Below, in pieces: positions 4,827 through 27,219 of a stretch of 64,000 nt of DNA. The first letter of the stretch is position 1. Every line of letters starts with the position of its first letter. The translations under genes and the position numbers were made by a program. Below the pieces are notes generated by a model. It did not search any database and was not told the origin of the DNA. It was given only the letters and a program-made list of their open reading frames with translations. Location of the stretch: positions 28,988 to 92,987 of IMG/VR virus record IMGVR_UViG_3300037258_001195; one strand, given 5' to 3'. Source of the DNA: a virus.

Positions 4827-5113
4827 GACACGTCCCCGTCTATAATAGCTCCTGTCCAACCGCAAGGCGGCGGATGTAAGATCCAACCTTTTACGCTTAA
4901 GGTCGAGAAATCATACCCTGATACGGAATATCTGCTTTGGGGAAACGCCAAGGCGTCGAGTCCCTCATACCAAATCACAATCATCCCACCGCATCGCGGA
5001 CAATTGAACGAAAATCCATTCGCCAAAACTGCATCAATGACACGATCATAATGCAGACTATGAGCCTGTCGACGAAATCGAAGAAATTCCGGACGAAATA
5101 ATTCTAATCTCAC
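4823..5113 (-). CDS. Small Cys-containing protein (DUF6527-like) inserted between the distal tail and hub genes
   Basis: FNCPRC ... CGWTGAIIDG; coupled at both ends by GTGA overlaps. Confidence 0.5.
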   Translation of the reverse strand: MRLELFRPEFLRFRRQAHSLHYDRVIDAVLANGFSFNCPRCGGMIVIWYEGLDALAFPQSRYSVSGYDFSTLSVKGWILHPPPCGWTGAIIDGDVS

Positions 5114-5733
5114 AGCAACACCGACTGAAGTTTCAATTCCTGCAACGTCCAAAGTTGCCGCATGAATTGTTCGAAATCCTCCGTATCATCGGCGAATCGA
5201 CAGATAAAGTAGAAACTAAATGTTGCAGTAATAGATGCATTGTTCGGGGGAGCGGTTGTAAACGTGACCACGCCAGTTCCAATGTTCACGGTATAGTCGG
5301 TAACCGCCAACCCATTTACATATATACCCTCAATGACATTTGGAGCCAAAATGGGCTCCGTGAACGACGTTCCTCCATAGTACGTCATAGTCCTGACAAG
5401 TTGAAACGCCGTGAACGTCCCATTTCCCACACCAATCGGCTGCATAGCAATATAATTGTCCGTTTCATCATTAAATAGAAACGGCGACAATGATCCTTGT
5501 TGGGCCATAAACAGGCCCATAAGGACACGTAATTCATCAAATTTATTCTTGTATAATTTTGGCCCCAATCCCCGCAGAAAGTCAAACCGCAATTTAAACA
5601 GCCAAGTTGGAACTGGTTGATATGTCAGCCTAAGCTCCCTACCACTGACACCTTTTTGGGTCTTAGTTTTGAACTGCGGGGATTTTGTTGTACTGTACGT
5701 CAATCCGGGGAGTGTCGGAAATATTACAGCCAC
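5110..5733 (-). CDS. DUF2460 distal tail protein
   Basis: FPTLPGL, SGRELR, IGVGNG..TAFQLVR, CRFADD. Confidence 0.9.
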   Translation of the reverse strand: MAVIFPTLPGLTYSTTKSPQFKTKTQKGVSGRELRLTYQPVPTWLFKLRFDFLRGLGPKLYKNKFDELRVLMGLFMAQQGSLSPFLFNDETDNYIAMQPIGVGNGTFTAFQLVRTMTYYGGTSFTEPILAPNVIEGIYVNGLAVTDYTVNIGTGVVTFTTAPPNNASITATFSFYFICRFADDTEDFEQFMRQLWTLQELKLQSVLL

Positions 5734-5756: not shown

Positions 5757-6269
5757 TTACTTGGATGTCGGGCTCGGCGCAGTTCCATCGTCGAGTAGCG
5801 GCCCAAGGTCGGCGAGCGTGTCGGCGGGGATCGGGTTGTCCTTCTGAAGCTGATCCGCCGGGAGTCGAAACAGATTCATCATCTCGGCAACTCGCTTCTT
5901 CAACAGCGCCGTAGCGTCGGCCTGCGCCTTCGCGGGATCGAGTTTGGCGACACTCTGGATGTTGCTGAGCGCTGCGTCGGAATCCTCGACCGCCGGTTTC
6001 AGCGCGTTGAGATCATGTGCGATCCACAGCGTCAGGCCAGGACCGAACTTATACGGCTCACTGACGACGTGCTCCTGCCCACCATCCTTCACCGTCCGAT
6101 CCTGCTTGCCGCCGAGCGCCCGGAGTGCCTGGAACGCCGACCGCGCTTCGCCATAGGTCATCGGGATGTTCTGAGCCCCCGACGCAGGTGTGGATGCGGG
6201 TGCTACGTCATTGGCGTAGGCAGTCGTCGCCAGGAACGATAGGGCCGCCGCGAGTATAACCCGGTTCAT
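5757..6269 (-). CDS. Signal-peptide protein, tail-fibre chaperone-like
   Basis: GGAGG RBS; MNRVILAAALSFLATTAYA|N; helical body ending NPIPADTLADLGPLLD. Confidence 0.55.
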   Translation of the reverse strand: MNRVILAAALSFLATTAYANDVAPASTPASGAQNIPMTYGEARSAFQALRALGGKQDRTVKDGGQEHVVSEPYKFGPGLTLWIAHDLNALKPAVEDSDAALSNIQSVAKLDPAKAQADATALLKKRVAEMMNLFRLPADQLQKDNPIPADTLADLGPLLDDGTAPSPTSK

Positions 6270-6643
6270 CACTTCACCTCCAGATGCGTACCGGAAATAA
6301 TGCACTGTCCCTGCCATTCGATGAGACAGCGTTTTCCGTTCCCGACTTTGATTATAGCAACGACAGCGGGACGGTCGGGATGTGGGTCGCTTGTAAGATC
6401 GATGACGAGTCCGTTTGGCGCGATTGCTTGAGCCTCCCCCACCTTTAGCGCAAATGACATCCCCGTATCGAAAGCGCCATTCAGCGGCTTGTCGATCATG
6501 ACTGGTTTATACGCAGGAGTATTGGTGGATTCCGCGCCTACCACATTCGTCCAATCTGGCCAGCTCGGTATCTTATCGATAGATTGCGCGAACGCCAGCA
6601 CCGGCACCGAACAAAGCAAACTCGCCAAGATTAACTTACGCAT
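6269..6643 (-). CDS. Signal-peptide protein of unknown function
   Basis: GAGAGGGG RBS; MRKLILASLLCSVPVLAFA|Q; C-terminal Cys pair. Confidence 0.65.
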   Translation of the reverse strand: MRKLILASLLCSVPVLAFAQSIDKIPSWPDWTNVVGAESTNTPAYKPVMIDKPLNGAFDTGMSFALKVGEAQAIAPNGLVIDLTSDPHPDRPAVVAIIKVGNGKRCLIEWQGQCIISGTHLEVK

Positions 6644-6754
6644 GATTTTCCCCTCTCGTAGGAATGTTTCTCTCGCGCTTTGGATCGGCATGGCGCGACG
6701 CGTCGAGAGTGCCGCGTCTGGGGAATGACCCCTGCCATGCCGACTGGAATTTCA

Positions 6755-9478
6755 TCAACCGCCAACCCATCCCGACGTGTTCCGAAAGGCGAGGCACGCC
6801 ACCGAGCCGCCGCCGGTGAATGTCCCACCGAAACTCGGGCACGATGTAAGTTGGTCGGTGACGTAGGCGATATCGCCAGCAGCTCCCGTGGGAAGCGATG
6901 CTACGGCAAAGCCCTTAAGCCGAGCGAGCGAACCGAAAACAATCTCTCCCGTGCCTTTGCCATTCAGTCCCAAGGCGATATTGGTGTCGCTGCCAACGGC
7001 CTCTATCTCGACCGGACTGCCTGCGTGGGAGGCAACGAATGCGGGATAATTCGCATTGGCAATTCCCCCACCGCCGCCCGCGAATTCCGCGAAATTTCCT
7101 AAACTAGTGGTATTATCTACTGTACTATATGATGTGATAAAAAAGTTGGCACCGTTCGTCACTCCGAGAGTGGCGGTAGAATGGCCCGCGCCGACGCACA
7201 GGTTGTTGCCCTCAAGCATGCAACCACTTATCGTCAGATTACCGCCGGAAGCCAGGTCGATTCCGGTCGCGATTGTGCTGGCACTGGGTACTACAGCAGC
7301 CATTAACGAACTGGTCGTGGTTAAGGGCCATTGCTGATCTGAGCCCCCGACGAGGATTGCCTGGTTAACCGATGCCCCCGACTGGATCGAAGTGATCCAT
7401 ATTCCAGCACATTCGCTGTAAACGTTCGTGCAGCCGACATCGCCGTTCCACAGGGCAAGCGTGAGGCCGACCTTGTGTTGCGAGAAAACGTTCGCTTGCA
7501 GCCCGTAATCAATCTCAAGCCCCTCGACCGAGTGAAGATAAGCGTTGCCGCTGGCTGGAGTTTTCCCAAGCTCTTGAATTCCGAGACCGTAAAAATCCCC
7601 GATCCCATTGCCGCTGCCAGAAGTTCCCCCAAGATTCACCTTGATCGTTTGACTGAAAAGCGCCTCCGGCCAGTAAGCGTTTCCGTTGACTTGCGAGCCG
7701 CCGGCATTATCGATTGTCTGGTTAAGCGCCAAGACTGAACCAGATCCCTCCCACGAGCCACTCAACGTCATATCGATTGACAGGCAATTTACGGCATCAG
7801 GGCTGCTCACGCCGATTGTCGGCGCGCTGACGCTCGACGTACAGCGGATCGCGTTGATGGGCTGCGTGTATCCTTGCGTCAACAGGAGCGCGGTGCTGAT
7901 CGTCGAATCTCCGGCGAGCGACGACACGTCGTAAAAGCCGGTGTTCGCCGCCCCGAACGCGCCCGAGATCGTAATCGCCGGCGCCATCGCAAGATTCGTC
8001 AGCGGCGTCGTCTGGCCGAGCGCCGCGTCGTCGATCGTACCACTGCTGGCCGTAAGGTTCGGCGTTTTAGTGCCAACCCCAGTCATTACCGAGACATTGC
8101 CCGTTGCAGTATTGGTGATGCTAGTCTTACTACTAAGTCCAACAATATTAAGATAGCCCCACGCTCCACCCTGAACAACTACGGCACCGCCGACTTCCAC
8201 ATTCGACACCGAAGCAATAGAATTCACCGCACCATCAACCGTCAACGTCCCTGAAATATACAGATTCGCGAGATTTAGTGCATCGTATTGAACAGCCGGA
8301 AGCGTGAAGGATGAGACGAAAAGGAAATCATCGTGAAAATTATCTTCAGTCATTACCGACGCTCCTATGTCAAACATAGGCAATGTCGGCGCATTTATAG
8401 TCGTATTGGCAACATTAAGCCTGAAAGGCGGCATGGTAGCGTCACTATGAATAATGGCAACGCCATTTCCAAGCGACATATCCACAACACTATCATCGAG
8501 AGTAATAATGCCGTCTATATATGAGGCAACATTGTAATAGTCAATAAAATAATCCGGAGACTGACTTCCCAGATTATATTGGCAATTTGTGCAGATAATT
8601 CCATTCGGATTGGTTCCGGTAATTCCCCAAAATGAAATCGAGGTTGCCTGATCGCCGCTCCCATTCAGTCCAAATCGAGCATTACTGATATATAGCTCTG
8701 GAAAACTATCATCAATAGTATGGCGACCGGTTAGGTTCCAAGTATATAAGTTATTACAATGTGCCGATACTCCATTTTCCCATTCAAATCCATTAACGGC
8801 ATTATAGGCCATGAGATTGTTGCAGTGGGAATTATTTCCCTGAAACGCGATTCCGGTTGCGCTTCCGCTGGGCGTTCCAGCAAAGGAGACAAGCAAGTTT
8901 TCGACATTGCCGCCGGCAGCAGTTGCCCCCGACACCCCGAAAGTTGCACAAACGCCTGTTACTGTATCATCGCAGATAATATGCGGTCCAAGGGGAGTAT
9001 TAGTCGGGGTAATTGCTGATCCCCCGCGCACAATTGCCGACCCAAAAGCAAGTGCAAGACTAGACCGAAATGTAAGAGACGGGATAATAATCGGTGCAAC
9101 ATTCGCAGCAGAATATGCAATAGCCTTGACAATACTCGCGTTCGCGTCCGTGCTTCCGCCTGGTACTGCCCCGAAATCACGAATGTCTATTCCGAGGGGA
9201 TCAGGGTTAGCCTCCCACCGTCCGGTTGCAGGATTAGTTGCCGGCTTTATGCAACTACCTCCATCATCGGTGCACGACGACGCCCCCTTCCAATTAAATT
9301 GAATAGCGGGCGAATCACCCGATGTCGCAAATCCCGTTCGAATTACTTGAGTATATTGTCCTGGAATCAGCGCGCGGAGGGCTGTATTGCTTTGAATTTG
9401 CGGAACTGAAACGGGGTCGGCATGGGCTGCGAACGCAAATAGGCCAGTAAACAAGATGCTTGCGAGTATTTTACGCAT
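6755..9478 (-). CDS. Tailspike-like beta-helix protein (pectate-lyase-like) with an N-terminal signal peptide
   Basis: DIRDFGAVPGG..DANASI..AI motif typical of beta-helix tailspikes; G/S/T/N-rich; MRKILASILFTGLFAFAAHA|D. Confidence 0.75.
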   Translation of the reverse strand: MRKILASILFTGLFAFAAHADPVSVPQIQSNTALRALIPGQYTQVIRTGFATSGDSPAIQFNWKGASSCTDDGGSCIKPATNPATGRWEANPDPLGIDIRDFGAVPGGSTDANASIVKAIAYSAANVAPIIIPSLTFRSSLALAFGSAIVRGGSAITPTNTPLGPHIICDDTVTGVCATFGVSGATAAGGNVENLLVSFAGTPSGSATGIAFQGNNSHCNNLMAYNAVNGFEWENGVSAHCNNLYTWNLTGRHTIDDSFPELYISNARFGLNGSGDQATSISFWGITGTNPNGIICTNCQYNLGSQSPDYFIDYYNVASYIDGIITLDDSVVDMSLGNGVAIIHSDATMPPFRLNVANTTINAPTLPMFDIGASVMTEDNFHDDFLFVSSFTLPAVQYDALNLANLYISGTLTVDGAVNSIASVSNVEVGGAVVVQGGAWGYLNIVGLSSKTSITNTATGNVSVMTGVGTKTPNLTASSGTIDDAALGQTTPLTNLAMAPAITISGAFGAANTGFYDVSSLAGDSTISTALLLTQGYTQPINAIRCTSSVSAPTIGVSSPDAVNCLSIDMTLSGSWEGSGSVLALNQTIDNAGGSQVNGNAYWPEALFSQTIKVNLGGTSGSGNGIGDFYGLGIQELGKTPASGNAYLHSVEGLEIDYGLQANVFSQHKVGLTLALWNGDVGCTNVYSECAGIWITSIQSGASVNQAILVGGSDQQWPLTTTSSLMAAVVPSASTIATGIDLASGGNLTISGCMLEGNNLCVGAGHSTATLGVTNGANFFITSYSTVDNTTSLGNFAEFAGGGGGIANANYPAFVASHAGSPVEIEAVGSDTNIALGLNGKGTGEIVFGSLARLKGFAVASLPTGAAGDIAYVTDQLTSCPSFGGTFTGGGSVACLAFRNTSGWVGG

Positions 9479-9483
9479 TTCAT

Positions 9484-10092
9484 TCACCACCAATTCGTTC
9501 CGTCAAAATTAAACGTCTCTTTTTGCCCGCTAGTTACCAGCGCGAACGAAGCTAGACCGCGAATCGTTCCAGACGATGGAGTTATTGTGCACGGGTAAGT
9601 GCCGAAATTATTTCCTGTGTCGATGAAAGCCACATTACTATTTGTGCTGTAATCAGACTTTAAAGTTACCGTAATCGGCGCTGACGATGTATTATCCACA
9701 TACACAGTCGTATATGGATGGTCAATAGTTTCATTCGTATGAATGGTAGTTGCAAGACCTATTGTGGTTCCGCTGGAGATGGCAACCCAAACCGCGTTGC
9801 CAGGAGTAACTCCCGCGCTTACACAAATATATAAGCTCTCGGTATCTGTATTATACCACAACGACCCCGCGCCGAAAAGCTGCGTGTAGTCGTTATCTGC
9901 GGTTGGACTAGAATCCGAAACGTTATTTCGTTGATTTAAGACATAACAACCGATTGCAATGAGGAACGCGACATCAATTACGTTCGCGTTGTAGATTAAC
10001 TGATATATATCAGAGGCATAGATATTTCCACTGGGGCAGCCTATTGTCTGCTCTGCCGATGGTGTCCAAATGAAAATGGTTGGTCCAGCCAT
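9484..10092 (-). CDS. Virion fibre/adaptor protein with a C-terminal T4 gp9/gp10-like domain
   Basis: PTADND..GSLWYNT repeat and VDNTSSAPITVTL...FDGTNW C-terminus. Confidence 0.55.
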   Translation of the reverse strand: MAGPTIFIWTPSAEQTIGCPSGNIYASDIYQLIYNANVIDVAFLIAIGCYVLNQRNNVSDSSPTADNDYTQLFGAGSLWYNTDTESLYICVSAGVTPGNAVWVAISSGTTIGLATTIHTNETIDHPYTTVYVDNTSSAPITVTLKSDYSTNSNVAFIDTGNNFGTYPCTITPSSGTIRGLASFALVTSGQKETFNFDGTNWW

Positions 10093-13000
10093 CAGAATGA
10101 CCTCGGAGTCAAGGCATTGTTGCGGAATAGACCTTTAATTGCACCAGGATTCGACGCAATCAGGCCGCGAAACCAACGGTCCATCGATGGGGCATCCATC
10201 GCAGCAGCGTGAAGATGAAGGTGATTGTCGCCACCGGACGCACCTCCACCGGCAACCATGTTTCGGACACCTTGGGCTAAATTCGCCGGGAGGACCATTT
10301 CACGGGGATGTAGGATGGACAAGCCACCAGCAATGTCCGCTCCGCCGCCGGCGTATGCGGGGACGTCCCAACCGCCCGAGGCGGCAGCAAGCAACGCCGA
10401 GGCCGCACCGCTAGCACCGGCGGCTGCTCCACCTGCGGCACTGGCACCACCGAACAGCCCCCCGATAAGCGGCAATCCACCGAGGAAACTAAGAAATCCA
10501 CCCGCATTCCCGACCGCGCCTGCTGCCGACCCAGCTCCACTCGCCGCCGAAGATGCCGACATGGTTGCGACAGATCCCGTGAAGGTTGCCACCGCCGAGG
10601 CGAAAGCAGTTACGGACGTAGCGAAAGTAGCTTCGGTCGAGATACTCTTCACGGCGCCGAGGCCGGTTCCGAGAAAGCCCCCCGGAGTTCCGATCCCAAG
10701 CATCTTAGCAATTCCTTGTCCGATGCTTGCCGTGCCTTCACCAAAAAGTGACTTTCCAATTGCCGTCGTAATTGACGAGCCGAGCTGCTTTCCCAAATCT
10801 CCTAGGGCACTCATGCCGAACTGCCCCAAGAGTTGTGTTGTCGGGTTAATCCGATGCGACTCCATCAATGGCTGGCCGTGCGGACCTTGCACACTGGACC
10901 ACCAATACTCCGGTTTCATTGGCTCAAAAGCGGATTTAATTGCTGTTCCGATCGTGCTTTCGAGTTGATCTCCAATGTTGTCAAAAGCGGCGCCCCACTT
11001 CGCAACAACCTCATTAACTGCTTGCGCGTGAGCCTCAACAACTTCCATCAATTTCTGATCGACTTGATTTTGAATTTGCTGATGTTGGATTAGGAATTCC
11101 TTATCAGCGTTGATTTTCTCTTGAATCGCCTCTTTATACAACTTTGGGTCTTGCTTATAGATCTCTTGTGCTTTGGCAATAATGGCGTCGTACGTCGAAT
11201 CAGTCTTCGACTTCAAATCATCTAGAGCCGCAATTTTCTGCACCCCAGCATCGCGAGCGGCAGAATAGTCTTGTTTCGCTCGCTGTTGCGGGGAGATTTC
11301 CTTATCGCCCTGAGAAATTCGCGCGGCGATTCTCGTGTGCTCTACTTGTGCATCTTGTTGTTCCGAAACAAGACGATAATCCTCTTTCAATCCCTGAAGG
11401 CTCTTCCTCAAGGCGTCGATATCGGACGTTGTTTCTTTATTCACTCCGGCGTGGTGCGGCTTTGGCTGATCGAATGGCTTTATTCCTGGCCGAACATCGA
11501 CGGGAGGAAGCTCCATAGGTCCGCCGAATTTGTGATACATATCACTGGTCGGCTTCCATCCCCCGTCAAACCGCGGCGCGCTAGAGAAACCAGGAATTCC
11601 AATTTTATTTAAAAACAGCCCAACCGACGCCTCAGCTTGCATTCCATAACTAAAAACCGTTCCTATTGCGCTAACAACAGACTTAGCTGCCGAGATAAGC
11701 TGGTTCATGAGGTTTAATACCGACTCTAGCGCCGGTATCGCGTTCATCTTAAATGTATCCCAACTCAAGCTAAGGGCATTGGTCTCTTGAGCAAGCTGCC
11801 GACCACCGTCAATATTCTTATCAACTGCATTTGCATAATCTTGTGCCGAGCTAGTAAGTTTCTGGTAATTCTGAACCATAGATGCAAGGGCGGCGTCAGA
11901 TCGACCAAATAACGCCTCTTCCGCCGCGCCTTTCACCGACGATGATTTGAAAGCATTTAACGCCGATGCAACCTTCATAAACATCGCATAGGTGTCATTA
12001 CCATGCGAAATAAGTTCATCTTGACTAACTCCGATGGCGTGAAGTGCTTTCGCCGCTCGTGACGCGGGGTTTGCCATTGCCTGTTCAATATGCATGGCAA
12101 ATTGCCGCAAAGCAGACGTTGCCCCATCCGCCTTAGTACCCGTTAAGATCAACGCCCCCTGGAGGGTTGCAAATTGATGAATGCTTAGTCCAGATGCTTC
12201 CGCCGCCCCGGAAATTTCCTCGCTGAGCTTCCCCATTGCCTGCGCCATATGCAGCGCACCTTCAGCGGCACCTACAACTGCAACGCCCCCCATAAGAGCG
12301 CCAACGCCAACACCGCCCCCCATTCCCGCCGCGCGAAACCCAGCCCCGACAGTCGACATCATCTGCCCACGTTGGCCACGCATTCCTTCGTCGAACAAGG
12401 ACATCCCCGTTCGGCCGCCGCGCATGAAACGAGACCAAAAACCTCGTCCAGCTACTTCGCCCGCCTCACCGGCTGCCCGTCGAATCTTCCCAAACGCCGC
12501 CTCAGCATCATTCACAGCAGTTTGATTATACACCTGACCTTTCGAGACGTAATTAAACCCTTTGTCAATCTCCTGCTGAAGTGACATATGCTGAACCGCT
12601 GCTGCCCCAGCGGCACGAGCAGACATTTGTTGAATTCGTGCTAACTCTTGCGCATTCTTCGAGGCTACCGAAAAATTAACATTGCTCGACGTTGGAGTTG
12701 TTCCGTGCGCGAAACTTTGGTCTAGTTGCTTCTGCCGTTCAGAGTGTTGCGTCGCAATCAATCGCGCATTGTTAAGTCCCGTCGTAGCGGCAATCGCATC
12801 GCGGACGGATTGAGTATAAAGTCTATTTCCACTTGCCCCAGCACGAGTAACGGCATCTAGTGCCGTCATCTCTCGCTCGACACCCTTAACGGCATCTGCT
12901 TGCCCGCGCATGGCAGCGATGGCGCGCGTGCTGAAGGTCGTGATATCGGAGAATGTCGCCATAGAACTGGCGCGAAGCTGAGTTAGTTTCGCCTCAGCGA

Positions 13001-13166
13001 TGGACAGTTCGGCGGCTGTTTTAGCCCCAAAACCGGCAAAGCCAGCGTATTGGCTTTGCCCCAGGTTGCTTAGTTGCTCCCGAAGCGACTTGATACGGGC
13101 TTCAAGTCGCGTAATCTCGCCGTCGCCAGAAACCCCAATGCTGATTCCGAGGCGATTGTCGCTCAT
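10092..13166 (-). CDS. Tape measure protein
   Basis: 1024 aa, Ala/Gly-rich and helical; C-terminal GGWDVP..LHPREMVLP; follows the tail chaperones. Confidence 0.9.
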   Translation of the reverse strand: MSDNRLGISIGVSGDGEITRLEARIKSLREQLSNLGQSQYAGFAGFGAKTAAELSIAEAKLTQLRASSMATFSDITTFSTRAIAAMRGQADAVKGVEREMTALDAVTRAGASGNRLYTQSVRDAIAATTGLNNARLIATQHSERQKQLDQSFAHGTTPTSSNVNFSVASKNAQELARIQQMSARAAGAAAVQHMSLQQEIDKGFNYVSKGQVYNQTAVNDAEAAFGKIRRAAGEAGEVAGRGFWSRFMRGGRTGMSLFDEGMRGQRGQMMSTVGAGFRAAGMGGGVGVGALMGGVAVVGAAEGALHMAQAMGKLSEEISGAAEASGLSIHQFATLQGALILTGTKADGATSALRQFAMHIEQAMANPASRAAKALHAIGVSQDELISHGNDTYAMFMKVASALNAFKSSSVKGAAEEALFGRSDAALASMVQNYQKLTSSAQDYANAVDKNIDGGRQLAQETNALSLSWDTFKMNAIPALESVLNLMNQLISAAKSVVSAIGTVFSYGMQAEASVGLFLNKIGIPGFSSAPRFDGGWKPTSDMYHKFGGPMELPPVDVRPGIKPFDQPKPHHAGVNKETTSDIDALRKSLQGLKEDYRLVSEQQDAQVEHTRIAARISQGDKEISPQQRAKQDYSAARDAGVQKIAALDDLKSKTDSTYDAIIAKAQEIYKQDPKLYKEAIQEKINADKEFLIQHQQIQNQVDQKLMEVVEAHAQAVNEVVAKWGAAFDNIGDQLESTIGTAIKSAFEPMKPEYWWSSVQGPHGQPLMESHRINPTTQLLGQFGMSALGDLGKQLGSSITTAIGKSLFGEGTASIGQGIAKMLGIGTPGGFLGTGLGAVKSISTEATFATSVTAFASAVATFTGSVATMSASSAASGAGSAAGAVGNAGGFLSFLGGLPLIGGLFGGASAAGGAAAGASGAASALLAAASGGWDVPAYAGGGADIAGGLSILHPREMVLPANLAQGVRNMVAGGGASGGDNHLHLHAAAMDAPSMDRWFRGLIASNPGAIKGLFRNNALTPRSF

Positions 13167-13546
13167 GCGAGTCGGAGCCCTTTGCGCTTTTCGTCATTCC
13201 GCAGTCGAAGCTCTTCGAAGTCGAGAATTACCGCTGTTTTGGCCTCTTTAGGATCGGGACCGCGAATTATTGGAATTGCAAGTCCAGCCTGCTTGGCTAG
13301 CTGATTTAGCATTGCGTCGGTAATCTCCTCATCGTCGGCGACTTTTCCGCCGAGCCCCTCAAGGAGCGACTTAACCAGCATTGAAGTCGGCGGATAGTCC
13401 TTCCACCCGCGAAGAAGCGCATTGGCCTCTCCGATGGTGTATTCGTCGACTATTCGCTTGTCCCATCCGTAGCCGGCGGCGAAGGCGGAGTAGAACGGCT
13501 GGACGTCGTAACTCCCGTCTCGGTCTCCGTCGCCGCTGCTTCCCCC
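13163..13546 (-). CDS. Tail assembly chaperone, -1 frameshift extension (gpGT-like)
   Basis: Open -1 frame overlapping the TAC 3' end and running up to the TMP start. Confidence 0.75.
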   Translation of the reverse strand, partial: GGSSGDGDRDGSYDVQPFYSAFAAGYGWDKRIVDEYTIGEANALLRGWKDYPPTSMLVKSLLEGLGGKVADDEEITDAMLNQLAKQAGLAIPIIRGPDPKEAKTAVILDFEELRLRNDEKRKGLRLA

Positions 13547-13839
13547 ACCATGCCGCTCAGACCAAGAACGGCATTCCAAGCAGCATTAACGTTGGCATAG
13601 TCGAGACGATCCCAAAGATCAAAATCAGAAAATTCCACCTCGGAATAATTCCTTCGCAGCGCCGCAATGACAATTTCACCGCGAAGAATCAAAAGCGGCG
13701 TGTAGTTGTTACCCGGTTCTGTGATTAGCTTATCATGCTGAACAAGCTTTTCGCCGAGTCCGTTTCGAAGCATCCCCAGACTAATTGGGGGAACTTCGAA
13801 TTCCTTGTCGCCAAGGGCGATTTTAATGCCGGGAACCAT
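13450..13839 (-). CDS. Tail assembly chaperone (gpG-like)
   Basis: Lies between the major tail and tape measure genes. Confidence 0.8.
   Translation of the reverse strand: MVPGIKIALGDKEFEVPPISLGMLRNGLGEKLVQHDKLITEPGNNYTPLLILRGEIVIAALRRNYSEVEFSDFDLWDRLDYANVNAAWNAVLGLSGMVGEAAATETETGVTTSSRSTPPSPPATDGTSE
13540..13546 (-). other. Programmed -1 frameshift slippery site G GGG GAA
   Basis: GTG GGG GAA in the TAC frame; the -1 frame continues GGGSSGD. Confidence 0.75.
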
Positions 13840-13877
13840 GTTGGGATAGCTCCGAAATTAGAGGAAAGGGGATGAGA

Positions 13878-14642
13878 TTACTCGCTTGTCGACAAGGTTC
13901 CGATCTGATTTCCCGTATTCGAGAACGCCATGTAGTCGAAATCGGGAATACCATAATCGTCAATTCTAGACGGGAAGGTCAGATGGCTACTAACACACTC
14001 AAAAAGTCGCAGCGTAATTTGCCCTGTCGACCCTTGCGTATTTCGCTGCTGGTAAAAGCTAGCTTCGAAGGTCGGCGTGTATCCCATGAAATTATTCGTC
14101 AGGGTAATCGTCTTGCCATTCGAGTCGGTGAAGGTGTAGGAAATTGCGACTGACGCGCCCGAATCCCCAGCACTAAACACATACACGCCGGTCGTGGGAT
14201 TGACATAATACGTCCCGGCGGAACTCGGTGCCGACTCTGCGGTATAGGTAAACCGATTTCCTTCGTTCAATCCGCCACTGTAATAAACCCCTAAATCGGC
14301 CACAAACGCAGTCGCCTGGGCAACAGTGACTGAAAATCCAGCTGTCGGAACCGTATTGACTTCATTCTCCGCCGTGTTGTATTCGCTCGCCGTAGCAAGC
14401 GATGATCCAAAGAATAGATCCGCATACAGGGCGGCGAAAATTCGCGCCATCTTCGCCTTTCCGGTAATCTTGCCCTTCCCGCGAGCAATATCGACCGGAA
14501 ACTGAAGTTGACTATAAAGCTCTTTCAACTCAAAGCTGAAGTCAATCGTATTGTCTTGCAAGATGGCGAACTGATCGGGGCCGATACTAGCCACGTCCGT
14601 TCGCGTGCCCCAGAGCGCGCCGATTCCGAAAATTAGCTGCAT
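13878..14642 (-). CDS. Major tail protein
   Basis: FGIGALWG, KELYSQLQFPVDIARGKGKITGK; position upstream of TAC. Confidence 0.85.
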   Translation of the reverse strand: MQLIFGIGALWGTRTDVASIGPDQFAILQDNTIDFSFELKELYSQLQFPVDIARGKGKITGKAKMARIFAALYADLFFGSSLATASEYNTAENEVNTVPTAGFSVTVAQATAFVADLGVYYSGGLNEGNRFTYTAESAPSSAGTYYVNPTTGVYVFSAGDSGASVAISYTFTDSNGKTITLTNNFMGYTPTFEASFYQQRNTQGSTGQITLRLFECVSSHLTFPSRIDDYGIPDFDYMAFSNTGNQIGTLSTSE

Positions 14643-15585: not shown

Positions 15586-16067
15586 AGGGCATCTCTAATT
15601 GCGTCTCGCAAGGCCGCCTCGATCTCGGGCGCCATTTCGGCCAATGCAGAGCGAAGATAACTTCTCTCGGGCATGGGAGGATGATAGACGTATGGAACGA
15701 ATATGATATCGCCGTTTTTCCCGACAAAACGTAGAACTCTTTTATTCACCGGAACGATCTCATACGAGCCCTTCCCACCATACTCGTGTGCCATCGCGTA
15801 GGCTTGGACTTTCTGGTCTGTCGACTCAACGGCCACGAAACCAATTAGTCCGCTTCCAATCTTCTCGACCCCAGAAACAAGCGCCTCGATTAGTGCGCCG
15901 GATTTGGAATTAAGAACTTTCCCGGAGAGATTCTCAACTACCTTTTCCCGAAGCAACGCCACCTGTTCGTCTAGTTTCGCCTCAATCGCGGCGTGGATTT
16001 TCTTTGGAATCGATTCCAGGTTAACCAGAACTTCTTGATCGACAATCTTAACGTTGATGCCAAGCAT
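15582..16067 (-). CDS. Neck/tail completion protein (HK97 gp10-like)
   Basis: YAMAHEYGG, MPERSYLRSAL. Confidence 0.75.
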   Translation of the reverse strand: MLGINVKIVDQEVLVNLESIPKKIHAAIEAKLDEQVALLREKVVENLSGKVLNSKSGALIEALVSGVEKIGSGLIGFVAVESTDQKVQAYAMAHEYGGKGSYEIVPVNKRVLRFVGKNGDIIFVPYVYHPPMPERSYLRSALAEMAPEIEAALRDAIRDAL

Positions 16068-16975
16068 CAGACTGGCGCCCCAATAGACGGGGGAACGACA
16101 TTGACGTATGGCCAAATCATGTCAGAAATCTCTGGGGGAAGACTTGGAAATGCCGATCCACGCATTCCGCCGCGAAGAAAGCGGACTGATTCCTGACCCC
16201 CAAGGGATTTCGATTCTTGTCCAACTCGGCCGCGATATGTCCAACGTTCGGCGACATACTGAATACAGGCTTCCTCCAGATCAGCCGGAACAAACGAGTA
16301 GGAAATTAAAAGGGCCGCCCCGGAATCGGACGACGAAAACGTGTAGAGTCCGGGAGCTGTGTCAGGTGGGGGAATGTACTGTCCAGCTCCGGGACTGCTC
16401 ACAACTGGAACCAGTGCAACTCCCGAATCCGCATAAACAACCCCGTTGTCCCGACACCAAATTCCACTTGGCTGAAGAACTGTCACAACGTATGGGCCAG
16501 GGCTTGATGGAATTATCTGGGCTTCGCTTTGGACCAAATATCCCGCCGTGTAGGAGATTTGGATATTCTGGGCTCCGGGCCACCAGACCCCATTAACAAA
16601 TTCCAGAACTGCCGGCTGCGAGGGTAGCCCACCATCCCAGGGTATGATGCGATAGCCCCATCCGAGGCTGGGCGGCGGGCTAATCCCTGTTTGCGGGTTG
16701 GGCAGCGGCGAAGCCGGAATAATCCCGGCCCCCATCTGAATATTACTAATCGCCGTCACAGGATAATCATGAAGAACGATCTGATACGTTCCCGTCCCGT
16801 CGACGGTTTCGACAAGATTTTTCGAGTAAAGCGTACTGCGATTTAATTTTGACCGAATACTCGCCGAGCATGAGGAGATTAGCTGTTGAAGAATCGTAGA
16901 CGAGTTTGAGTTAGTCCCCTCAAGCCAATTCTCGGCCCGAGCAAGGGTCGTTAGATCGCCAGCCGCGAGGGTCAT
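16067..16975 (-). CDS. Head-tail connector with an inserted beta-rich domain
   Basis: DLTTLA N-terminus, ISYTAGY, VPADLEEACI. Confidence 0.75.
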   Translation of the reverse strand: MTLAAGDLTTLARAENWLEGTNSNSSTILQQLISSCSASIRSKLNRSTLYSKNLVETVDGTGTYQIVLHDYPVTAISNIQMGAGIIPASPLPNPQTGISPPPSLGWGYRIIPWDGGLPSQPAVLEFVNGVWWPGAQNIQISYTAGYLVQSEAQIIPSSPGPYVVTVLQPSGIWCRDNGVVYADSGVALVPVVSSPGAGQYIPPPDTAPGLYTFSSSDSGAALLISYSFVPADLEEACIQYVAERWTYRGRVGQESKSLGGQESVRFLRGGMRGSAFPSLPPEISDMIWPYVNVVPPSIGAPV

Positions 16976-17163
16976 GAGCGGACCGTTAGATCAAAACCTA
17001 GTGGATGCGAAGGGGCAACCCGATACAAAGGTTGACCTAAATGATTATAAAGTCCAATAAATCGGGGTGTGGACTTTTCTTGCTCAATAATCACTTCCCC
17101 GCCCGCAGCGTGCATTTGGCCATAAATGTCAGGAAGTTGAACTATGGCCTTATATTCGCTCAT
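16972..17163 (-). CDS. Hypothetical protein
   Basis: ATGA-coupled ORF. Confidence 0.5.
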   Translation of the reverse strand: MSEYKAIVQLPDIYGQMHAAGGEVIIEQEKSTPRFIGLYNHLGQPLYRVAPSHPLGFDLTVRS

Positions 17164-17627
17164 TTCTTCCCCGCTTTCACGAGCGCGTCGCGAGTGTCCT
17201 GTTCAGACTCAAATTCGTCCAATCTCGCCTTAAGGGTCGCATTTTCGGACTCAAGTCCCTTATTCGCCTGACGAAGAATCGTGCATTCACTCTCGGCTTG
17301 GCGCTGTTGAGACTGAAGTCGCTGAATAGACTCATTGGCAAGTATCAATTCCGCCCGGAGGCTCGAAATCGTCTGGGCTTGCTCACCAATCTGCTGACTG
17401 GCCTGCCCGAAGGTCGGAAGCAAATCGTCAATCTCGCATCCCTCTGGGCGACGTCCGGGAGGAAGACTACCAAATCCAAGATTCATGTCGAGAAGTTTCG
17501 GCGCAAAATGATCCGGCGCCTGAAACCAATCTCGACCCTCGTCGTCCCGGAATTCGCTGGTGAAATTCTGCTGCTCAACCGAGCAACTTTCAGTTCCCTC
17601 AGGAAACATAAACCACATTGTCATCAC
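17160..17627 (-). CDS. Hypothetical head-associated protein with coiled coil
   Basis: GAGGAG RBS; C-terminal coiled coil. Confidence 0.6.
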   Translation of the reverse strand: MMTMWFMFPEGTESCSVEQQNFTSEFRDDEGRDWFQAPDHFAPKLLDMNLGFGSLPPGRRPEGCEIDDLLPTFGQASQQIGEQAQTISSLRAELILANESIQRLQSQQRQAESECTILRQANKGLESENATLKARLDEFESEQDTRDALVKAGKK

Positions 17628-17664
17628 TCCTCAAACGACGAGAGAGTTGGGAATCCCCCGCCAA

Positions 17665-18132
17665 TTATGCCAACAAGAGGTTGGCGAATTCCTCTTCCGT
17701 CCCCACAACAGCCATATCCCCCTTCATGGAGATAAGATGCTTGGAGTCCTGATACACAACAATCTTCCCCCCGCGAGCAAGGGTGCGTTGGATAAAGTCC
17801 TTGACAGGATCTTTTTTCCACGCATCGGGAAAATCGGGATATGGATAGATGTGAATCGTCTCGCGATCGACGCCCCAGGGCCAGCCGATTACGACTTTGG
17901 ACCTCTCGGGAAGCATCGCCGGAGGAAGACGAAAATCTCCCCCACGACGCTCTCCATCAAGAAAAAGACAGACATAATGGCGGCACGCATCTGGCCGCTC
18001 CTCATAGATACGACAACCGGGTCCGGAAGTTGTCGCTCCGAGATGCTTGCACGGCTGGCCGAATTCTTTCTGAACCTCGGGAACAGAAAAAACCCGGCAA
18101 CAACCAGTGCAATCCTGACACAATGCCGCCAT
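17665..18132 (-). CDS. YkgJ / CxxCxxCC cysteine-cluster protein
   Basis: CQDCTGCC...C..L...CRIYEERPDAC..YVC. Confidence 0.8.
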   Translation of the reverse strand: MAALCQDCTGCCRVFSVPEVQKEFGQPCKHLGATTSGPGCRIYEERPDACRHYVCLFLDGERRGGDFRLPPAMLPERSKVVIGWPWGVDRETIHIYPYPDFPDAWKKDPVKDFIQRTLARGGKIVVYQDSKHLISMKGDMAVVGTEEEFANLLLA

Positions 18133-18164
18133 TATATCCTCCGCGTTCTAGAGACCGTTAATAA

Positions 18165-19820
18165 CTAGAAGGCGAAGTTGCCGGTCGTGGGATTAACGTT
18201 ATTGATGACGGCGAAGCCCGGCGTGAAGTAGCACGGAAAGACTTCATCCGCATACACGCCATACTCATATCGCCGCGACCGCCAGGGCCATTGGATCTGA
18301 TAATAATCCTGCCGAACGCGAGCCTCCAATATATTCCCCACGCCGCTCAGCTCATACGGACTCCGATCCGACCAGAACAAGATCGTCCCAGGCGGAATAT
18401 ACGGATGCAGCTCTACGTCGAGCGTATTTCCGAAGAACTTGTTGATATAGGACGTGATCTTATAGCCCGCAACCAACTGCCCCTTTTCGTTGTTCTCGAA
18501 AAAGAGCCGGAAGATATTCGACGTGCCCGACTGACTCATCATCGCGCCGAAGCTGTTCAGCATATCGACCGAGGAGATCAAAATCCGATCAAACCCGATC
18601 TTATACTGGTCATACGCGGCGCGAAGAATTGAGTCGAACTCGTTGATATTGACGCCGTTAATCGTGAGGCCCGTGTTCCCGTTGGGACACGAATACACGA
18701 GCGATCCCGAGGGGCTCAACGTGACATTCGCAGGCAACGTAGCCGCAGTTGCCATCTGAGTCCCAGGCGCCGGCCCTGTGATGTTGCCGAAGACCTGATT
18801 CAGAATGCCATCGGGAGTCAGGAAATTGATTGAATTGTCCTGATAATTCCCGCCGACCTGAAGCGATGTAACCGGCTGCGCAGTTGCGGTATTGGGGAAT
18901 TTCGTAAAGACCGCCTGAGTCGAGGGCGAGATGCCCGCGAGATATTCGGCACCGGAAGCCGACCCAATAAACCATGCGTAGCCCATCGCCCCGACCACGG
19001 AAGCAACCGTAGCGGTTACGATTTGGGTTGAGGACGTGCCGACACTTGCCTCAGCGGAAGGTTGTGCCGAGCCGCCGCCATAGGTATCGGACGAGCCGTC
19101 GGCGTTGATTCGGGTGATCTGCCCAAGAACACCGCCAGTTCCAGTTGCCGCGTTGTATGGAGAATAATTCGCAATCCCCATTCCCGTAAGCGCAACGGCG
19201 CGAACGTAGACAGTTCCGCCCGAGAATGACCCGGTATTTCCGCCGCCAGCGGCTCCCGCGGAGAGCGTCGGAGTCGGCGTAATCCCCAGCGGCAGATTTG
19301 CGTCGCCATTGATGAGAAGCTTTTCCTCATCAATCATCAACGAACGAAGACTCGACTGAACACTGATCCCAAGCGTTTCCGGCGAGAGATTTCGACCCGC
19401 AAGCCGCGCCTCGAACGTGACCGAACTCTCGTAGCCGACCGTCTTAAAGGTCGCCATCTGATCCTGTTCGGAGATCGGAATACGCCCGCCACGATTACCT
19501 TCCGAGACGCCCGAGGACATTCCGTTGGGATTAATCGCAACAATACGTTTCCAATGATAGCTGTTTCCGCCGTCCGCGGCAACGCGAGGAAGCCGAGAAA
19601 TTCGCGGAATCAATTCCCGATACGGATAGAGCATCTGGACAACCGGCGACAGATCGTACCAGAGCAGATTCGTGCTCTGGGAAATCGTATCCGCCTTCGC
19701 TAGAGCATCCGGACCATATTCCGTGTCCAGAAATTTCCTAAAGGTCTCGTTCTGCGTCAGTGCAGAGACGAACTCATTCCCGATCCCGCCAGGGCCGGTG
19801 AAAGGAACATTACCCGACAT
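18165..19820 (-). CDS. Major capsid protein with a large insertion domain
   Basis: Follows protease/scaffold; PRISRLPRV, HPYIPPGTIL, YEYGVYADE; strongly biased codons. Confidence 0.85.
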   Translation of the reverse strand: MSGNVPFTGPGGIGNEFVSALTQNETFRKFLDTEYGPDALAKADTISQSTNLLWYDLSPVVQMLYPYRELIPRISRLPRVAADGGNSYHWKRIVAINPNGMSSGVSEGNRGGRIPISEQDQMATFKTVGYESSVTFEARLAGRNLSPETLGISVQSSLRSLMIDEEKLLINGDANLPLGITPTPTLSAGAAGGGNTGSFSGGTVYVRAVALTGMGIANYSPYNAATGTGGVLGQITRINADGSSDTYGGGSAQPSAEASVGTSSTQIVTATVASVVGAMGYAWFIGSASGAEYLAGISPSTQAVFTKFPNTATAQPVTSLQVGGNYQDNSINFLTPDGILNQVFGNITGPAPGTQMATAATLPANVTLSPSGSLVYSCPNGNTGLTINGVNINEFDSILRAAYDQYKIGFDRILISSVDMLNSFGAMMSQSGTSNIFRLFFENNEKGQLVAGYKITSYINKFFGNTLDVELHPYIPPGTILFWSDRSPYELSGVGNILEARVRQDYYQIQWPWRSRRYEYGVYADEVFPCYFTPGFAVINNVNPTTGNFAF

Positions 19821-19856: not shown

Positions 19857-22193
19857 TTACGCCCGCTTACCGGCGGCGGCGCCACGAAAACTCGGATCAA
19901 AGATCGACCGTCCATTCGTGCCGTTGAGGATGTAGGTTCCGGCAACTTTTCGCCGCGCACCTTCATCATTCTCAAGCTGCATCGGAGAAACGCCCGCATC
20001 CTGGATCGCCTTCATAAGCGGGTCGCTACCCGCTCCGTCGGCGCCATTTCCGTTTCCGATGACTTTCGTCATATCAAACGCATACGGTGCACGACTGGAC
20101 GTGCTGCGGGCCAGAAGATTATTCTGGGCTTCGAGCCGCGCGTTTTCGATGAAGAGCTGAGCCGTCGCGGCATCGATTCGGCCATCCTTGCCAACCGCCT
20201 TTGCCAACTTGCCCCAATCCTTGTCAAGCGCCTGGATCGGCGGCTCGCGGCTACCACCTCGCGTCCCGGGTCCAGCAGTTGCAAGATCGCTCGGCGATAG
20301 GTCAGTGACGCCAGGGGGAACTCGATAGAATTCATTCCCGTGCGTTGGCTCCTGTTCCTTCTCACCAGATCGTCCCGCCATCTTTTTCAACTGTTCCCGG
20401 GCAGCCTTGGTAAAGGTGGAGACCTTCGACAGTTCTGAATATGCCTTATTCAGCTTATCCATCGCACCAGCCGAGTCGAATTCACCATCTTCCTCGTCGG
20501 GCTTCGCCTTACCCTTCGCCGCCTTCTCCATCTTGGAGATATAATAGGCTTTGATGAGCTTGGAGCACTCCTCGATCGCACCGGCAGCTTCCTTGCGAGC
20601 CTTCGACGCTTTCTTCATATTATCGCCCGCAGACTTCATCCGCATCGCCCGAGTTGGCTGAGCCGCCCGCTTGATTACGTCGAGAATCGCGTCCTGCAGA
20701 GGATCGCCCCCGCTAGTCTTCCTGAGATCGTCGCTCGTCGCTGCCATTTCGAAATCCTCACCTAAGAATTGCATGAGATATTGGTCATCGATGTCAGAAA
20801 GATCAACTGCCTCCTGACCTTCATGAGTTGCTTTCTGACCGATGACCGAAGCCAGAATCTGCGCCGCGGAACCTAGGTCTTTCGCCAGGCCCTTGTCCTT
20901 CATATCGCCGCCTTCACCCTTCGCCTCACGAAGAAGACTTCGTTGCGCCGAGCGAATCGAGTCGAAACAGAATGCCAACGACCCAGCAACTTCCATTCGC
21001 TTCGAAAGCGGTGCGGCGAAACTATCTTGTCCGCCTTCCTGAGACTGTCCCAACGTCAGCCACGACGGGAGTACGGGAGGCGCCGCTCCGTCGTCCCTCT
21101 CAGCGGCCTTTAGGGTCAGGAAGGACGGCACTACCGCCGAGCCCGAAGACTTAGTAAGAGATTTAAGAATTACTTTCTCATTAGCGAGTTTTGAGATTGC
21201 CGATGCGCGAGCGGCTTTCTTAGCTTCCTTTGCTGCGGCTTTCTTGCCCCATTTCTCGGGCAACATATCAGTCGCCCCGAGCGCGGCAGCGCGAGCTTTG
21301 ATGTGGCTCTTTGCCTTCCCTTTGTCCTTGGCACGGCCAAAAGCCGACACAGCATCCCCGAGAGCTTCTTTGTCGGGAATCGGATAACTCCCATCGGGAA
21401 GGGCAATCCCTTTCCCCGCATATTCCTTTCGTTGATCGGACGAGTACTCCCGTTTCGAAATATCTTCGCCGCATGTCGGACAGCCCGCAACTCCATGAAC
21501 GGAGCAAATTTTCGTATTCGCTGCGTCTAGCGGATTGCTAGTCTGCGCGTCAAACGGCGGCTTTCCATCTGCCTTCGCTGTTTTCTTTGGCTTTATCTTC
21601 TCTTGTACGTCACGAACTAATTCGTCCTGACTCGGGGCCTTGGTGAGAAATTCACTGACCATCGCGAAGCTATTGGCAAGTTTCTGAACACGAGTCTTCT
21701 TGGCCTTCCGAAACGCCACTCCCGGCTCAAACGCCAATGCTCCCGTCTTGTCCATCTTTGCCATATTAAACCGACACTCTGGATTCGCGGGCCGGTCGAC
21801 AATGGAGATCTCGGTCATCGAAAGTCGGGTAATCTTATTCGGATCGTTGGGATCTTTGTCGAGTTTCCGCCCCCCGATCGAAAATCCCTTATAGACCTTA
21901 TCGACAACTTTCTTCCAGGCGTCGTCGTCGGAAATCTTCGCGGTCAACCAAAGTCCCTTTCGGTCAACATGCGCCTCTTCGGCAGTTCCAACGGCTTGGA
22001 GCCGATGCATCTCCCGAATATTACCATACTGCATATAATCCGGGAGAGCTGACTTAATCGCCTCAAGTGCGATCGTTTCTCCATCTGAGTCCTTTGCCTC
22101 GGTCGAAGCGTAGCCTGAGATTGTCCTCTTAGCTTCGTCGACCTTAGTGATCGGCAAAAAGAAATTAAGGTCGCTCATCTTAGTCTCCGACAA
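19857..22193 (-). CDS. HK97-type prohead protease fused to a scaffold (with a DUF6582-like domain)
   Basis: GYASTE..DSDGE, IREMH, YKGFSIGG, EISIVDRPANP; then ALPDGSYPI domain and a Lys-rich region. Confidence 0.85.
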   Translation of the reverse strand: MSETKMSDLNFFLPITKVDEAKRTISGYASTEAKDSDGETIALEAIKSALPDYMQYGNIREMHRLQAVGTAEEAHVDRKGLWLTAKISDDDAWKKVVDKVYKGFSIGGRKLDKDPNDPNKITRLSMTEISIVDRPANPECRFNMAKMDKTGALAFEPGVAFRKAKKTRVQKLANSFAMVSEFLTKAPSQDELVRDVQEKIKPKKTAKADGKPPFDAQTSNPLDAANTKICSVHGVAGCPTCGEDISKREYSSDQRKEYAGKGIALPDGSYPIPDKEALGDAVSAFGRAKDKGKAKSHIKARAAALGATDMLPEKWGKKAAAKEAKKAARASAISKLANEKVILKSLTKSSGSAVVPSFLTLKAAERDDGAAPPVLPSWLTLGQSQEGGQDSFAAPLSKRMEVAGSLAFCFDSIRSAQRSLLREAKGEGGDMKDKGLAKDLGSAAQILASVIGQKATHEGQEAVDLSDIDDQYLMQFLGEDFEMAATSDDLRKTSGGDPLQDAILDVIKRAAQPTRAMRMKSAGDNMKKASKARKEAAGAIEECSKLIKAYYISKMEKAAKGKAKPDEEDGEFDSAGAMDKLNKAYSELSKVSTFTKAAREQLKKMAGRSGEKEQEPTHGNEFYRVPPGVTDLSPSDLATAGPGTRGGSREPPIQALDKDWGKLAKAVGKDGRIDAATAQLFIENARLEAQNNLLARSTSSRAPYAFDMTKVIGNGNGADGAGSDPLMKAIQDAGVSPMQLENDEGARRKVAGTYILNGTNGRSIFDPSFRGAAAGKRA

Positions 22194-23889: not shown

Positions 23890-24588
23890 TTACGACCCAG
23901 TCAACGGCGCGTTGAATGAGTACATGAAGCCATAAGTATGGGAGGCGTTCGGCGCACTCGACGGCGTAATGGTTGCCAACGTTACCGCCGATGCGGTGCC
24001 AACCGTTTCATCCCCAGCATTCGTCGTCTCTTTAATAAAGACAACATCTTTTGCACCGGGATTCACTGGAACCGAAATTGCGGCAGTCGAATCGATCTGA
24101 ATGCCCGGCGAGGTGCCACCGACAAGACCTGCAACGGTCGGCGCGGAGAGATGCACGATACCTTTCGAGGTAAACGTCGTTGCGGTCCCGCTTGCCGGAG
24201 CGGCAAGAGAGAACACATCAACTTGGGACGTGCCATCATTGGCGAGATATGGAATCGAGATCGTGCCGCCTGTTACGGCAGACGTCCCCGCAGCAACAAC
24301 AACGGCACCTTGCCGCGGAACGTCTGGTTGCGCCGCAACCGAAAGCGTGCCATTCGCAAGCGATGTCGAGCCGACGAATTTCCCGGCCGCCGCAGCAACA
24401 ACTACGGGAGTCATGCCGTAGTTGAAGACTTGTGCAACGAGAAGTTCCGCCCCAGCAGCTAAGAGCGCAGAAATATCTCGCGAATCAACATTCGCCGTCC
24501 CGTCGGCCCCAGCAACATACGTCCCGTAATTGCCGACAATTTGACCGCCCAAGCTCCCAATAAACATTTTCACAGTCGACGAAGCCAT
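23890..24588 (-). CDS. Putative capsid decoration / structural protein
   Basis: S/T/A/G-rich; QPDVPR; lies in the head module. Confidence 0.55.
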   Translation of the reverse strand: MASSTVKMFIGSLGGQIVGNYGTYVAGADGTANVDSRDISALLAAGAELLVAQVFNYGMTPVVVAAAAGKFVGSTSLANGTLSVAAQPDVPRQGAVVVAAGTSAVTGGTISIPYLANDGTSQVDVFSLAAPASGTATTFTSKGIVHLSAPTVAGLVGGTSPGIQIDSTAAISVPVNPGAKDVVFIKETTNAGDETVGTASAVTLATITPSSAPNASHTYGFMYSFNAPLTGS

Positions 24589-27086: not shown

Positions 27087-27219
27087 AGCAGGCCTTGCAC
27101 AACGCCAAGCCATTCTGGACAATTAAGGGTCTTAAAGCATCGTTTCTCAAGTACGTAACACAAGTAACACTTTGGATGAATCCAACCTTTTAATTTTGTA
27201 TTGATTATATATGGAATTT

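Follow-up and report, generated by a model that had tools for sequence, protein, structure and literature searches.

Three consecutive genes in the late tail operon of a siphovirus provirus (IMG/VR record IMGVR_UViG_3300037258_001195) carry predicted bacterial export signals, and sequence comparison supports well the export and oxidative folding of the largest product, a tailspike-like protein of 907 amino acids (aa) (hereafter the spike). We analyzed a window of 64,000 nucleotides (nt), covering positions 28,988 to 92,987 of the record, in which a 4.4-kb block of four extra genes (5757-10092 of the window) lies between the genes for the tape measure and a DUF2460 distal-tail protein. The genes around this part of the tail operon are all on the minus strand, and the block runs in the order orf202 (10092-9484), the spike (9478-6755), and two small genes, B (6643-6269) and C (6269-5757). 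Our leading, though tentative, reading of the spike is that of a protein produced with the late genes and exported in free form to bind or depolymerize polysaccharide; with similar reserve, we regard the block as an accessory cassette carried within the late tail operon of a gene transfer agent (GTA)-like siphovirus provirus.

Export signals in three consecutive genes

An earlier note on this DNA, made by a model from the letters, had claimed three consecutive signal peptides with AxA sites, and both the leaders and the cleavage motifs are present in the translations as it quoted them. The spike, B, and C all open with leaders of the Sec/signal-peptidase-I type, as scored by a heuristic based on n-, h-, and c-regions and on the residues at -3 and -1 (rather than by a trained predictor). 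The spike (6755..9478, minus strand, stop codon at 6755-6757) starts with an ATG at 9478, 5 nt past the orf202 stop and downstream of an imperfect GGTGGTG, and its 20-residue signal peptide (residues 1-20, 9419..9478, minus strand) has a predicted cut between AHA and D. B (ATG at 6643) and C (ATG at 6269, overlapping the B stop) each have a 19-residue leader, spanning 6587-6643 with a cut between AFA and Q, and 6213-6269 with a cut between AYA and N, respectively (both minus strand). The note had also credited the last two genes with strong ribosome-binding sites (RBSs), which we located as GAGAGGGGA before B and GGAGGTGA before C. The n-regions read MRK in the spike and in B and MNR in C, the hydrophobic cores are uncharged and 12-15 residues long, small residues occupy -3/-1, and no lipobox occurs in any of the three leaders. 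A crude scan of 1227 candidate starts (open reading frames [ORFs] of at least 60 aa in the window) flagged one other real gene start, that of a holin-like membrane protein (607-885); the remaining flagged starts were internal or antisense.

Two other accounts of these N-termini were rejected. A frameshift fusion of orf202 and the spike was ruled out, the spike frame being closed by a TGA at 9505-9503, 8 codons before the ATG. B was likewise ruled out as a lipoprotein for want of a lipobox, its Cys11 failing to form one because Leu stands at -1.

Leaders and cysteine pairs among relatives of the spike

An exhaustive HMMER search recovered 729 relatives of the spike in a pattern typical of a modular protein. 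The leader is kept in homologs, a check that the earlier note had proposed: it is present in all three word-index homologs of the spike and in 19 of the 20 best homologs of its helix, and is retained down to 40% identity. Relatives that lack a leader open with classical phage-fibre N-termini. In the leaderless appendage gp43 of Achromobacter phage Axy04, for example, residues 249-341 are 41% identical to the module that precedes the helix in the spike (the pre-helix module) and follow a 248-aa anchor, and the leader stands exactly at the site of the virion anchor in phage relatives. Among leader-bearing relatives, 5-15 variable residues separate the cleavage site from the pre-helix module. The spike itself has no N-terminal virion-binding anchor: its leader passes directly to the pre-helix module, which begins within approximately 12 residues.

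The 16 cysteines of the spike fall into eight sequence-local pairs (69/76, 169/177, 219/241, 296/299, 546/565, 683/690, 753/761, and 880/895) with partners 3-22 residues apart, a pairing expected in about 6 of 100,000 random placements. B has a single pair (106/114) besides Cys11 inside its leader, and C has no cysteine; the close pairs quoted earlier for the spike and for B are thereby borne out. Of 69 leader-bearing relatives, 56 have both Cys169 and Cys177, compared with only 3 of 49 leaderless ones (Fisher 6e-17, a value inflated because the relatives share ancestry), and the leaderless relatives mostly have Phe at position 169. On a FastTree phylogeny with the two cysteine columns masked, nine independent contrasts were obtained, of which five ran in the same direction and none in the opposite (p ~0.06). 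At the positions of Cys69 and Cys76, Axy04 gp43 has Q and V, and the CxDDGGSC motif is retained in several leader-bearing relatives. In the C-terminal fibre-tip domain, a subfamily with the pattern DQLTxCP...C has leaders almost throughout (18/21 against 3/13). The tip cysteine pair was dropped as a general mark of leader-bearing carriers, since the link breaks down outside the DQLTxCP subfamily; whether or not they have a leader, most viral carriers of the tip domain have 0-1 Cys in the tip. Co-variation of cysteine pairs with the leader offers a marker, readable from sequence, for sorting exported from cytoplasmic spike relatives.

One relative with its own leader is cellular. It lies outside any prophage, in a polysaccharide locus on a Rhizobium sp. 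11515TR megaplasmid, among genes for glycosyltransferases, methyltransferases, an outer-membrane protein, and a chain-length/export protein. The relative is at locus positions 11806-13878 of plasmid NZ_CP022999.1, where the PLSDB table lists no gene, and the locus is flanked by Hint-domain proteins and IS66-type transposase genes.

We consider export of the spike to be well supported because its leader is conserved, the cysteine pairs follow the leader, leaderless relatives start like fibres, and the Rhizobium relative sits in a polysaccharide locus. The export and oxidative folding that the earlier note proposed for the spike is in line with these results, given that leaders are conserved in relatives and cysteine pairs co-vary with them. 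For B and C, export is predicted from their leaders. Since all three proteins bear bacterial export signals, they would be expected to mature outside the cytoplasm, with good support in the case of the spike and on the strength of the leader in the cases of B and C.

The fibre-tip domain (core residues 840-907 of the spike) is always at the extreme C-terminal end of its carriers and is encoded in 185 IMG/VR contigs. Strict leaders were found in 17 of 62 distinct complete viral carriers, and neighbours of leader-bearing carriers have leaders themselves more often than neighbours of leaderless ones (19% versus 5%, p 8e-4). A 49.7-kb podovirus-like contig, IMGVR_UViG_3300036799_000033, has, immediately following its capsid gene, four or five consecutive leader-bearing genes that match nothing in PHROG (6954-12727), and a further one beyond a classical leaderless tail fibre (16145-18193). 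Genes for spike-like proteins with predicted leaders are thus recurrent in phage structural modules, as judged from the 17 carriers, their leader-rich neighbours, and the run of genes in this contig. Two short relatives, P0118 and P0138 (85 and 87 aa), consist of a signal peptide and the fibre-tip domain alone and might be secreted receptor-binding or receptor-masking modules. Searches for related loci in viral, genome, and metagenome collections found nothing with the spike and queries A1 and A2, and a spurious match only with the spike homolog P0015.

Modules and fold of the spike

The spike comprises four modules after its leader (all minus strand). The pre-helix module (residues 23-95, 9194..9412, with Cys69/Cys76) is found alone in many matches. 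It is followed by a right-handed parallel beta-helix (residues 96-470, 8069..9193, with Cys169/Cys177), modelled by AlphaFold2 with a predicted local distance difference test (pLDDT) score of 75-97, and by a middle region (residues 471-805, 7064..8068) with three cysteine pairs, a higher G+C content at third codon positions (GC3), and pLDDT below 50. The protein ends in the fibre-tip domain (residues 806-907, 6758..7063, with Cys880/Cys895; pLDDT 85-94). The model was built on 149 sequences; an earlier one built on 4 sequences was too poor and was not used. The middle part is common to few proteins, among them the leader-bearing P0007, which is 48% identical to the spike over residues 451-901. 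No Pfam or NCBIfam family matched the spike, phrog_4250 ("EPS depolymerase") matches residues 29-138 only, and the homolog P0011 matches PF12708 at an E-value (E) of 0.001, below the cut-off.

Structural matches to the helix reached VIA Z scores of up to 29.8 and Foldseek E-values of 1e-5 to 1e-9. They include phage proteins (phi29 gp12, Z 29.8; Dettilon, Z 28.4; CBA120 and HK620, Z 24-26) and exported bacterial proteins (AlgE4, Z 29.6; PfbA, Z 27.7; RbmB, Z 25.2; AlgG, Z 20.9). The modelled fold says that the helix is of a polysaccharide-binding or -cleaving kind, and the adhesin PfbA scores as well against it as the enzymes do. Fold was dropped as a means of telling a virion spike from an exported enzyme, as both classes score alike.

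Mosaic composition and companion genes

GC3 is 0.39-0.44 in orf202 and in spike residues 1-400, 0.55-0.75 in the spike from approximately residue 450, 0.58 in B, and 0.74 in C, compared with 0.44-0.52 in the neighbouring tail genes. The step therefore lies inside the spike gene, at approximately residues 450-500 (0.40 to 0.55-0.75), and continues through B and C (6755-8100 and 5757-6643). The beta-helix ends at this step, and the nearest relatives switch there from P0002-P0004 to P0007; the step marks what appears to be a recombination joint. Because of the GC3 break and the switch of relatives, the distal half of the spike, B, and C probably arrived together. Fibre tips travel together with helper genes, and this shared arrival, the sole sign of its kind, is a hint by analogy that B and C may serve the spike.

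B (124 aa, 6269..6643, minus strand; leader and Cys106/Cys114) and C (170 aa, 5757..6269, minus strand; helical) are orphans. Searches of Pfam, NCBIfam, and the Atlas with B, and of Pfam and NCBIfam with C, gave nothing usable; the Atlas model of C (residues 37-170) resembles viral hypothetical clusters of ~130 aa (TM 0.65-0.73). Neither B nor C nor orf202 was found by tblastn in 80 viral loci. The spike and B are separated by a 111-nt spacer (6644..6754, minus strand) with a hairpin of an 11-bp stem (minimum free energy -44.8 kcal/mol, z -2.7), no T-tract, and no promoter-like match. This hairpin might act in processing or stability, or as an attenuator separating the spike from B and C.

The first gene of the block, orf202 (202 aa, 9484..10092, minus strand), has no signal peptide, and its start overlaps the tape-measure stop. 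Residues 130-199 weakly match (E 0.0015) XD1, a T4 gp9/gp10-like domain, of CBA120 TSP4-N (PDB 7rfv/7rej), and there is a weak match to phrog_31104. XD1 is a gp9/gp10-like module of baseplate anchors that has been described as a spacer, and its fold is also a glycan-binding fold (PMC8825819). We detected no XD2 or XD3 docking domains in orf202, nothing usable for it in Pfam or NCBIfam, and no relatives in phages or IMG/VR, and it has no sequence similarity to the spike, to the product of 23890-24588, or to the anchors of leaderless spike relatives.

Genomic context of the block

The source record is an IMG/VR provirus of 92,987 bases whose first 27 kb have 66-69% GC, and the window is its 52% GC part. 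According to Pfam and PHROG matches, the window holds a complete siphovirus structural module with a GTA-like tail tip, including a terminase (27718-29208), an 839-aa portal (24603-27122, minus strand), and a 778-aa ORF resembling a protease/capsid fusion (19857-22193, minus strand). The block is bordered upstream by the tape measure (10092..13166, minus strand; phrog_9570/2276) and downstream by the DUF2460 distal-tail gene (5110..5733, minus strand; PF09343, E 1.7e-38). The tail tip also encodes a hub (PF09931 and BR0599) and an NlpC-like peptidase, and a host-specificity protein of 787 aa, fibre-like at its end, belongs to the tail module itself. With the tape measure, DUF2460 protein, hub, peptidase, and host-specificity protein all present, the tail module is complete without the block.

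A second, related GTA-like head-tail module lies in the high-GC part of the same record (record bases 1-27000) and has no such block. Its DUF2460 gene (record 9096-9671) encodes a protein 50% identical to the window copy and starts 6 nt after a tape-measure-like gene, so the 4.4-kb block is an insertion relative to the nearest related module. The earlier note had described the spike as a tailspike and asked whether it is a virion appendage. The description of fold and modules stands, while its place on the virion is put in doubt by the lack of an anchor, the separate host-specificity protein in the tail module, and the sibling module without the block.

Several other features of the record were noted. 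The joining of the high-GC stretch to the 52% GC phage could reflect tandem elements, a host GTA beside a prophage, or a chimeric contig. The portal has an extra C-terminal domain of ~160 residues (620-788), which may be a fused cargo domain because it matches PHROGs labelled DarB-like, endolysin, or minor head protein. The 778-aa ORF looks like a protease-capsid fusion because it matches both head-maturation-protease and major-head-protein PHROGs. Finally, phrog_8234 covers the whole of a 254-aa protein (13878-14642, minus strand) and residues 160-228 of a 302-aa head-tail adaptor-like protein (16067-16975, minus strand), so these virion proteins appear to share a domain.

A free exported protein or a virion component

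If the spike is a free exported protein, as we tentatively propose, it would be produced alongside the tail proteins, cross the membrane by Sec in an unfolded state, be cut after AHA, and fold in the periplasm with up to eight disulfides. The mature protein would act free, not pre-assembled, binding or cleaving capsule, exopolysaccharide (EPS), or lipopolysaccharide of the host, either on nascent chains in the periplasm or at the surface and on debris after lysis opens the envelope. It would remove material in which progeny become trapped, or destroy the receptors of dead cells, with B and C as its periplasmic companions.

Several observations weigh against this proposal. The spike bears a fibre-tip domain that occurs mostly in leaderless phage fibre-like proteins, and it directly follows the gene for an XD1-like protein, orf202, which from its match is a candidate virion adaptor. 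Those carriers of the tip domain in IMG/VR that have leaders are located in structural modules, grouped with further genes that have leaders, an arrangement at least as compatible with a virion role. Within the late operon the genes of the cassette are closely packed, and promoter- or terminator-like signals did not rise above background. Neither a substrate nor catalytic residues of the spike were identified, and no active-site mapping was made.

A second explanation, which we consider possible but less probable than a free exported protein, is that the spike is a virion side spike docked after export. The earlier note had named as fates both docking at lysis and a secreted depolymerase or receptor-masking complex. 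Here, orf202 would sit on the tail tip in the cytoplasm while the spike matures in the periplasm, possibly helped by B and/or C, and the two would meet when holin lesions merge the compartments at lysis. The location of the block between the tape measure and the distal-tail gene, the 5 nt between the orf202 stop and the spike start, and the similar GC3 of orf202 and the N-terminal half of the spike all agree with such a pairing, as do the XD1-like domain of orf202, a module known from the baseplate anchors of branched tailspike complexes, and the full receptor-binding-protein (RBP) architecture of the spike with its tip domain from 185 viral contigs. So, too, do the leaders in 17 of 62 viral carriers, their enrichment among neighbours (19% versus 5%, p 8e-4), and, in IMGVR_UViG_3300036799_000033, the successive genes with leaders that follow the capsid gene. 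Moreover, tailspikes of P22 can be attached in vitro to particles that lack a tail. Secondary RBPs can dock via a short conserved peptide instead of a large anchor (PMC13352976). However, the spike has neither an anchor nor a conserved docking peptide, and the 5-15-residue linkers of its relatives are variable. The XD1 match is weak, and the source that describes XD1 treats it as a spacer rather than a surface for docking (PMC8825819). In addition, orf202 has no similarity to the anchors found in leaderless relatives, the sibling tail module does without the block, and the literature search found no described tailed-phage precedent. A tailed phage that exports a side spike and two helpers and completes its tail only at lysis would represent an extracytoplasmic branch of assembly, perhaps common in uncultured phages; we hold this to be doubtful.

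It is less likely still that the block is a lysogenic-conversion cassette (moron), in which an enzyme and two periplasmic proteins expressed from the prophage would remodel or trim the surface polysaccharide of the lysogen, leading to superinfection exclusion or a benefit to the host. Secreted or lipoprotein morons do occur beside tail genes (lambda lom and bor, T5 llp, and phi80 cor), the source record is that of a provirus, the sibling module has no such block, and there is a cellular relative in the Rhizobium polysaccharide locus. GC3 in C (0.74) and in the distal half of the spike (0.55-0.75) also nears the 66-69% GC flank, in contrast to neighbours at 0.44-0.52. However, a consensus scan for promoters and terminators in or beside the block gave nothing above shuffles (using a sigma-70 consensus that may not fit the host), starts and stops overlap or nearly abut those of late genes, and orf202 and the N-terminal half of the spike are phage-like in composition. 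Lastly, it is very improbable that the N-termini are chance sequences, uncleaved membrane anchors, or wrong starts of cytoplasmic proteins: although the leaders were called from sequence by heuristic alone, and in public gene calls C begins at Met37 and a truncated copy of the spike at residue 182, three leaders in a row have n/h/c regions, AXA sites, and good RBSs at exactly these starts, that of the spike is conserved in relatives and tracked by cysteine pairs, and the Met37 start lacks an RBS and would leave 108 nt that encode a perfect in-frame leader by chance.

Comparison with known systems

Phage tailspikes and depolymerases (P22 gp9, Sf6, HK620, CBA120 TSP1-4, and phi29 gp12) resemble the spike in having a beta-helix between a small module and distal domains (Z 24-30) and in being encoded in tail operons, and modules of the spike also occur in leaderless phage fibre proteins. 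They assemble in the cytoplasm and have an N-terminal anchor, whereas the spike has a Sec leader in that place together with local cysteine pairs. In branched complexes (CBA120 TSP4-N, G7C gp66/gp63.1, and KP32-type RBP1/RBP2), a small gp9/gp10-like protein is encoded just before the spike, as orf202 is here, and secondary spikes may lack a large anchor. The partners in those complexes are cytoplasmic, however, whereas here the spike is predicted to be exported, and orf202 has only an XD1-like match at E 0.0015.

Exported tailspike-like beta-helix proteins that act on polysaccharides are known from cells (WceF, RbmB, AlgG, and AlgE-type proteins), and the spike is predicted to share this combination of features. 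WceF of Pantoea stewartii, a tailspike-like trimer that a cell makes and exports, is encoded in an EPS cluster (PMC7949094), comparable to the polysaccharide locus of the Rhizobium relative. By fold and description, then, WceF is similar to the spike, but it has a Tat leader, a P22-like head domain, and a chromosomal host gene, compared with a Sec-type leader and a phage tail operon for the spike. The MAT fibres of Bdellovibrio, which are cell-exported, phage-fibre-like mosaic trimers, have a signal peptide that leads directly into a conserved, beta-rich domain, with distal tips that are swapped, an arrangement that by description recalls the spike (PMC10769870). However, they belong to a predatory bacterium rather than a phage, and many end in S74 chaperone domains, none of which was seen in the spike. 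Leader-bearing genes of Porphyromonas phages have been read as envelope modifiers (PMC10367356). Our literature search found no paper describing a Sec leader on the tailspike of a tailed phage.

A tail-operon protein of spike and fibre modules that appears adapted to export, with a leader in place of the anchor and disulfide pairs gained, would break with a cytoplasm-only picture. Tailed-phage particles are held to be built entirely in the cytoplasm. Either periplasmic enzymes that destroy receptors may be a routine phage product, built from pieces of spikes, or some of the machinery for host recognition may mature extracytoplasmically. The co-variation of cysteine pairs with the leader also shows spike modules to move between virion proteins and exported ones, and the production of active depolymerases from such proteins would need an oxidizing compartment. 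A parallel outside tailed phages is g3p of filamentous phages, a receptor-binding protein with a Sec leader and periplasmic disulfides in inoviruses, which assemble at the membrane and never in the cytoplasm, something that tailed phages are not known to do. The spike is predicted to have the same Sec-type leader and periplasmic disulfides as g3p, the one encoded by a tailed phage and the other by an inovirus.

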